Positions 52,506 to 52,551 of a stretch of DNA of 64,000 bases are shown in pieces; the stretch's first letter is position 1; every line of letters begins with the position of its first letter. This DNA comes from Escherichia coli (lineage in GTDB: Bacteria > Pseudomonadota > Gammaproteobacteria > Enterobacterales > Enterobacteriaceae). The notes beneath the pieces are model-generated. The model was not told the DNA's origin and ran no database searches. It worked only from the letters and a program-made list of their open reading frames with translations. The translations under genes were made by a program, and so were the position numbers. Location: NCBI RefSeq assembly GCF_045037415.1, contig NZ_CP173438.1. One strand, 5' to 3'.

Positions 52506-52530
52506 AAAAACACCTGTCGGGATGACAGGC
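52504..52530 (-). terminator. ydjN rho-independent terminator (shared with cedA 3-prime end)
   Basis: minus-strand hairpin GCCTGTC-atccc-GACAGG followed by UUUUUUU. Confidence 0.6.
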
Positions 52531-52551
52531 GTTTAACGTAACAAATCAGGA

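Follow-up and report, generated by a model that had tools for sequence, protein, structure and literature searches.

The direct junction between cedA and tcyP in the 64-kb stretch of DNA analysed here (hereafter the window) most probably preserves the ancestral organization of this locus. According to this reading, to which we give a probability of about 0.85, the 46 bp separating the two genes correspond to the original cedA-tcyP terminator spacer, the phylogroup B2-type lineage of the window never received the ydjO islet, and the ydjO-containing module of K-12 is the derived state. Within E. coli, the junction is an ordinary accessory-gene polymorphism between phylogroups, visible in reference genomes ever since CFT073 was sequenced, and therefore of little scientific weight by itself. 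A gene-poor state that is ancestral, facing a K-12 state that is derived, nevertheless calls for caution when differences from K-12 are read as losses.

The window is a segment of an E. coli chromosome, reverse-complementary to positions 1,800,001-1,866,550 of K-12 MG1655 and collinear with them at ~97% identity (blastn), which agrees with the otherwise collinear core region described in an earlier note on this DNA. The gene cedA, encoding the cell division activator CedA (52242..52505, plus strand; Pfam PF10729, E 7.9e-46, 154.5 bits for a curated cut-off of 27), has as its upstream neighbour katE, encoding the catalase HPII (49798..52059, minus strand; ORF and annotation of SK1144 and K-12). 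It converges with tcyP (formerly ydjN; 52552..53943, minus strand), an ORF of 463 aa for a cystine/sulfocysteine:cation symporter of the SDF family (PF00375, E 9e-107, 357.9 bits for a curated cut-off of 27.9), annotated as tcyP in matching genomes. CedA has 87 aa in the PGAP annotation, the start equivalent to that of K-12 (80-aa form) being at 52263, and its C-terminal tail reads ...QENEVEE; the same protein (WP_001241562.1) is present in SK1144, CFT073, AHB4, and 729_021014_1_4. Between the two stop codons lie exactly 46 bp (52506..52551), as the earlier note had estimated, with a single significant hairpin. These 46 bp are identical in CFT073, SK1144, and AHB4, and match at 45 of 46 positions in 729_021014_1_4. 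Neither a ydjO-like sequence nor a ydjO qPCR primer site was found within the 64-kb window, and a search of the spacer for ydjO-derived residues retrieved none.

The stem-loop (52508..52534, minus strand; terminator scan and folding) is composed of 11 pairs and a 5-nt loop, followed on the minus strand by TTTTTTTATT, and lies between an A-run and a T-run. It is predicted to fold at -15.8 kcal/mol as minus strand RNA (z = -4.6) and at -12.8 kcal/mol as plus strand RNA (z = -3.9), none of 200 shuffles being as stable in either case. The hairpin looks asymmetric between the strands. In the direction of tcyP, a U-tract, UUUUUUUAUU, is located directly 3' of the stem, and the consensus terminator scan called the hairpin on this strand only. 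In the direction of cedA, the tail after the stem is UUUAACG (TTTAACG), too degenerate for a U-tract, and an A-for-G change introduces into the stem a C/A mismatch that is a G-U pair on the minus strand. The hairpin of the window is a predicted intrinsic terminator, strong for tcyP, but weaker and uncertain for cedA because the plus strand tract is merely UUU. The shared hairpin terminator proposed in the earlier note is thus well supported toward tcyP, and less so toward cedA. As in the bidirectional intrinsic terminators of convergent enterobacterial genes, there is one GC-rich stem with A-run/T-run flanks directly after both stops; in contrast to them, the plus strand U-tract is degenerate and the stem mismatched on that strand. 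At the same hairpin, other Escherichia species have a perfect stem followed by UUUU, and several other genera display 5-8 U.

In MG1655, the order is tcyP (b1729), ydjO (b1730, 804 bp, 267 aa), and cedA (b1731), as the earlier note had stated for K-12, with flanking genes and order like those of the window. In the alignment with MG1655 across cedA-ydjN that the note had proposed, homology extends to 52487, 18 bp short of the cedA stop, and restarts at 52545 (blastn and pairwise alignment), with identities of 96.8-97.8% on either side of the junction. The segment without BLAST-level homology to K-12 (52488..52544, 57 bp), comprising the last 18 bp of cedA and most of the spacer, stands in place of 1106 bp of K-12 (1812333..1813438). 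This K-12 module contains an alternative six-codon cedA tail (GEVTE, where the window has NEVEE), a separate hairpin after cedA (CUCCCGG...CCGGGAG), ~290 bp of very AT-rich DNA between this hairpin and ydjO, and ydjO itself, with a strong hairpin in its 3' end where the tcyP terminator is predicted. The AT-rich stretch upstream of ydjO has been listed as a "promoter island" (PMC3661553). The GC content of the module is 34.5%, against 48-59% in the flanks. Deviant GC and a narrow taxonomic range (homologues only in Escherichia) are what a horizontally acquired islet should display. These traits, together with the upstream promoter island, the single copy, and the lack of mobility genes, fit the AT-rich orphan-gene islets of the H-NS-bound "promoter island" type, whereas the window, containing none of the module, represents the empty-site allele.

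The way in which the module would have arrived is less straightforward. No mobility gene was found in it, and searches recovered no copy in the phage collection and no true plasmid copy; the three PLSDB hits (NZ_CP134663.1, NZ_CP141089.1, and NZ_OL790696.1) are mislabelled E. coli chromosomes of 4.8-4.9 Mb. A 9-bp direct repeat, TAAG(G/A)ATTA, flanks the K-12 module (K-12 1813423 and 1812331) and is also found, in perfect form, in Escherichia sp. MOD1-EC7003 (locus L008, positions 4261 and 4452); it could represent either a target duplication or a microhomology. A target-site duplication model was discarded, as the empty site that it implies, in which 3 bp would separate the stops of cedA and tcyP, occurs in no genome examined. 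The left boundary of the module falls within cedA, outside the spacer, and neither this boundary nor the 9-bp repeat fits a simple insertion model.

The direction of the change can be approached from the distribution of the junction outside E. coli. Using CedA as query against one genome per bacterial species, we recovered 54 loci, in 52 of which tcyP is convergent and directly downstream of cedA, with a gap of at most 70 bp in 40 of these 52 loci (median 63 bp). The outgroup genera include Citrobacter, Salmonella, Enterobacter, Kluyvera, Leclercia, Klebsiella, Atlantibacter, Phytobacter, Siccibacter, and Pseudocitrobacter, and several other Escherichia species likewise present a convergent cedA-tcyP pair. 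A hairpin with the succession A-run, GC-stem, and T-run is found in most of the outgroup spacers listed, and similarity to YdjO in two outgroup loci only. At the sequence level, four other Escherichia representatives (E. whittamii, Escherichia sp. E1V33, and two more), with tcyP genes ~90-91% identical to that of the window, have spacers that match the one of the window at 36-38 of 46 positions; the cedA tail NEVEE is common to the window and those Escherichia species, and the stem core GCCTGT...ACAGGC is shared with two Citrobacter representatives (L012 and L015). The window therefore has what is expected of an ancestral empty site, namely a spacer orthologous to those of outgroups and no remnant of an insert. 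Since a deletion of ydjO could not rebuild both the orthologous spacer and the cedA tail, we infer that the window carries the ancestral allele and that ydjO was inserted later. The earlier note was right that ydjO is absent from the window, but the loss that it implied is at odds with the outgroups, in which the direct junction appears ancestral.

Enlarged cedA-tcyP gaps of 240-905 bp, without similarity to YdjO, were also observed in Siccibacter colletis (L051), Klebsiella indica (L048), and two further loci (L040 and L055). Independent insertions of other sequences into this terminator site may have occurred in those genera.

Within E. coli, the direct junction was recovered as one contiguous match in 1127 of 5426 complete genomes (21%), and DNA of the ydjO region in 4301 of 5426, nearly full length in 4240 and restricted to partial matches in 61, some of them with IS1 insertions. 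As these two sets account for essentially the whole collection, the pangenome comparison suggested in the earlier note reveals a polymorphism with two alleles. The empty one is carried by, among others, CFT073, SK1144, AHB4, and 729_021014_1_4, the first two of which belong to phylogroup B2 (PMC12366417), while ydjO is present in K-12, BL21, and O157:H7. The earlier note considered the arrangement strain-specific, and named the same adjacency in reference genomes as the observation that would contradict it. This adjacency is precisely what CFT073 shows (NC_004431.1, 1967423..1967468): its spacer is identical to that of the window, its CedA (WP_001241562.1) and TcyP (WP_001010714.1) are also identical, as they are in SK1144, and the flanking order is alike, leaving no difference at the cedA-tcyP locus. 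Identity to the window over 24 kb reaches 99% or more in 950 genomes, and the next step among the evenly spaced matches listed goes from 98.9% to 97.9%, which fits a distinct clade and is consistent with the B2 phylogroup of SK1144. Nevertheless, the empty allele is not strictly limited to one background, because AHB4 combines it with a longer spacer between katE and chbG and with an espL1 that is intact, features of neighbouring variable sites that were not seen in the clade of the window.

Several alternatives to an original empty site have to be considered, the most serious being that the lineage of the window carried ydjO and lost it secondarily, through a deletion or because the empty allele of another Escherichia lineage replaced it by homologous recombination. 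Losses of ydjO do occur. In Escherichia sp. MOD1-EC7003 (L008, 4255..4475), whose tcyP is 95-96% identical to that of E. coli, 893 bp are gone between 12-bp direct repeats, TGACGATCT(A/G)TT, and from its sequence this loss is a classic microhomology deletion; the partial ydjO of the 61 E. coli genomes mentioned above points in the same direction. In addition, ydjO-type alleles are found in this sister lineage and in E. albertii NBRC 107761 (L010, 4265..4822), where an open frame downstream of cedA is 39% identical to residues 22-135 of YdjO. This E. albertii frame runs into the contig end, so that its length there is partial; it is accompanied by a GEVAE cedA tail and by an AT-rich stretch matching in part the promoter island of K-12. 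No katE match was found upstream of cedA in this locus, and protein databases queried with the ydjO-like frame returned only a 79-aa fragment. The remnant in L008 and the frame in E. albertii indicate that the islet is old and spans species, both alleles having coexisted in the genus, and some ancestor of the lineage of the window could have carried it. The combination of features in AHB4 further suggests that alleles at this locus move by recombination. However, a spacer and a cedA tail orthologous to those of outgroups could not arise again from a simple deletion, and the known deletion allele is unlike the window, as L008 retains a cedA tail of the K-12 type, the hairpin after cedA, and ~100 bp from the 3' end of ydjO. 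Regaining the empty allele by recombination would circumvent this difficulty, but it is less parsimonious, and we consider a secondary loss unlikely.

Two other readings carry even less weight. It is quite improbable that the spacer encodes a small RNA or a regulatory site in place of a terminator. The position of the hairpin is indeed conserved across genera, but the architecture is maintained while the sequence changes, as expected of a terminator, the 46 bp contain nothing beyond a hairpin and its A- and T-runs, which is how terminators separating convergent genes are typically built, and a scan of 51900..54200 against Rfam, with E up to 1, gave no match. That ydjO was present but collapsed or missed, in the assembly or in the annotation, is refuted by the recovery of the same contiguous junction in 1127 complete genomes from many laboratories, with a spacer identical among CFT073, SK1144, and AHB4, and by the genome-wide absence of the ydjO amplicon from 1132 of 5426 genomes.

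The history that best accounts for these observations would therefore start from convergent cedA and tcyP genes separated by a spacer with a single GC-rich hairpin between A-run and T-run flanks, probably acting as an intrinsic terminator that would be strong for tcyP and weaker for cedA. The phylogroup B2-type lineage of the window would never have acquired the ydjO islet; less likely, the empty allele would have returned to it through homologous recombination. In K-12 and ~79% of the sequenced E. coli, an AT-rich module of ~1.1 kb would have replaced the spacer together with the last six codons of cedA, providing an alternative cedA tail, a hairpin for cedA, the promoter island, ydjO, and a new tcyP terminator embedded in the 3' end of ydjO.

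Searches with the protein encoded by the islet pointed to no fold or function. YdjO had no match in Pfam, NCBIfam, PADLOC, or a sequence search of the PDB, and its relatives among 5.8 billion clustered proteins were all at least 74% identical, every hit with a named source being E. coli. An exhaustive HMMER search of 1.84 billion cluster representatives added only YdjO fragments and one apparent homologue with 26% identity (P0034, from locus L063, a contig of Logan SRR33321306). This candidate was rejected as a sequencing or library artefact, because A-to-G (237) and G-to-A (132) changes account for almost every difference between its DNA and ydjO; it nevertheless stands as a cluster representative in the protein library. 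The AlphaFold2 model of YdjO reached a pLDDT of 65.6, and its comparison with the PDB using Foldseek gave no hit below E 0.009 (TM ~0.16). Therefore, as far as sequence comparisons can tell, YdjO is an orphan with a range restricted to Escherichia. Its alleles are mosaic: in an alignment of P0001, P0006, and the K-12 protein, P0006 is 76% identical overall, the differences being concentrated in residues 1 to ~165 and the ~100 residues of the C-terminal part, overlapping with the embedded tcyP terminator, being nearly invariant.

This pattern leaves room for a more speculative interpretation, which we regard as improbable, in which the cedA-tcyP site is a long-lived polymorphism between empty and ydjO alleles across Escherichia species, kept by selection and not by drift. 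It is permitted by the presence of the islet in non-B2 E. coli, of its remnant in L008, and of a 39%-identical version in E. albertii, as well as by the empty allele in B2 and other Escherichia species and by the variable N-terminal and constant C-terminal parts of YdjO. If it were true, the allele pattern would fit a conflict-type function of YdjO, for instance in defence or immunity.

The polymorphism has a practical side, since a 2024 article (PMC11057252) presented YdjO as a conserved signature protein that only E. coli/Shigella possess, and built a qPCR assay on it. The primers and probe of that assay match K-12 exactly, but they find no target in the window, nor in the segments around the locus taken from CFT073, SK1144, and AHB4. 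The 99-bp amplicon was found in 4294 of 5426 complete E. coli genomes (79%). The sensitivity panel of that article consists of ten "hemorrhagic" strains (including O157:H7, O111, and O121) and seven environmental isolates, none of which is identified as B2 in the sections consulted. Detection by the YdjO assay was the least frequent (93%) in that article, and its correlation with culture counts the weakest (r = 0.65; PMC11057252). The patchy distribution of ydjO could contribute to this low detection rate and correlation. An assay based on ydjO only would under-count about a fifth of the sequenced strains, among them an important group of human-associated and extraintestinal pathogenic E. coli. 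B2 strains, for example CFT073 and SK1144, lack the amplicon at the locus.

The junction is one of several presence/absence differences between the window and K-12, in agreement with the earlier note, which had listed the missing ynjI and an additional SIMPL-like ORF. The latter is a SIMPL/DUF541 ORF of 270 aa located between ansA and sppA (15827..16639, minus strand; PF04402, E 3.9e-18) and carried by an 841-bp segment (15775..16615) absent from K-12. In the gap between gdhA and topB, 100 bp of the window (22317..22416) stand in place of the 1308 bp of K-12 that include ynjI, and contain a REP-like palindrome. In CFT073, the same interval is occupied by genes for a J-domain protein, a member of the Hsp70 family, and a hypothetical protein (L059, 37615..42125); the content of this gdhA-topB interval is variable. 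The katE-chbG spacer (49758..49801) measures 44 bp in the window and 254 bp in K-12, and part of the extra K-12 sequence matches positions 42684..42809 of the window at 81% identity, which suggests a dispersed repeat of the REP/BIME type. Finally, in the arpB/espL1 pseudogene region (~60114..60117, within 59990..61200), the window is 870 bp shorter than the arpB of K-12. Many non-B2 genomes annotate an intact T3SS-effector-like espL1 at this site, and the window therefore holds a truncated remnant.
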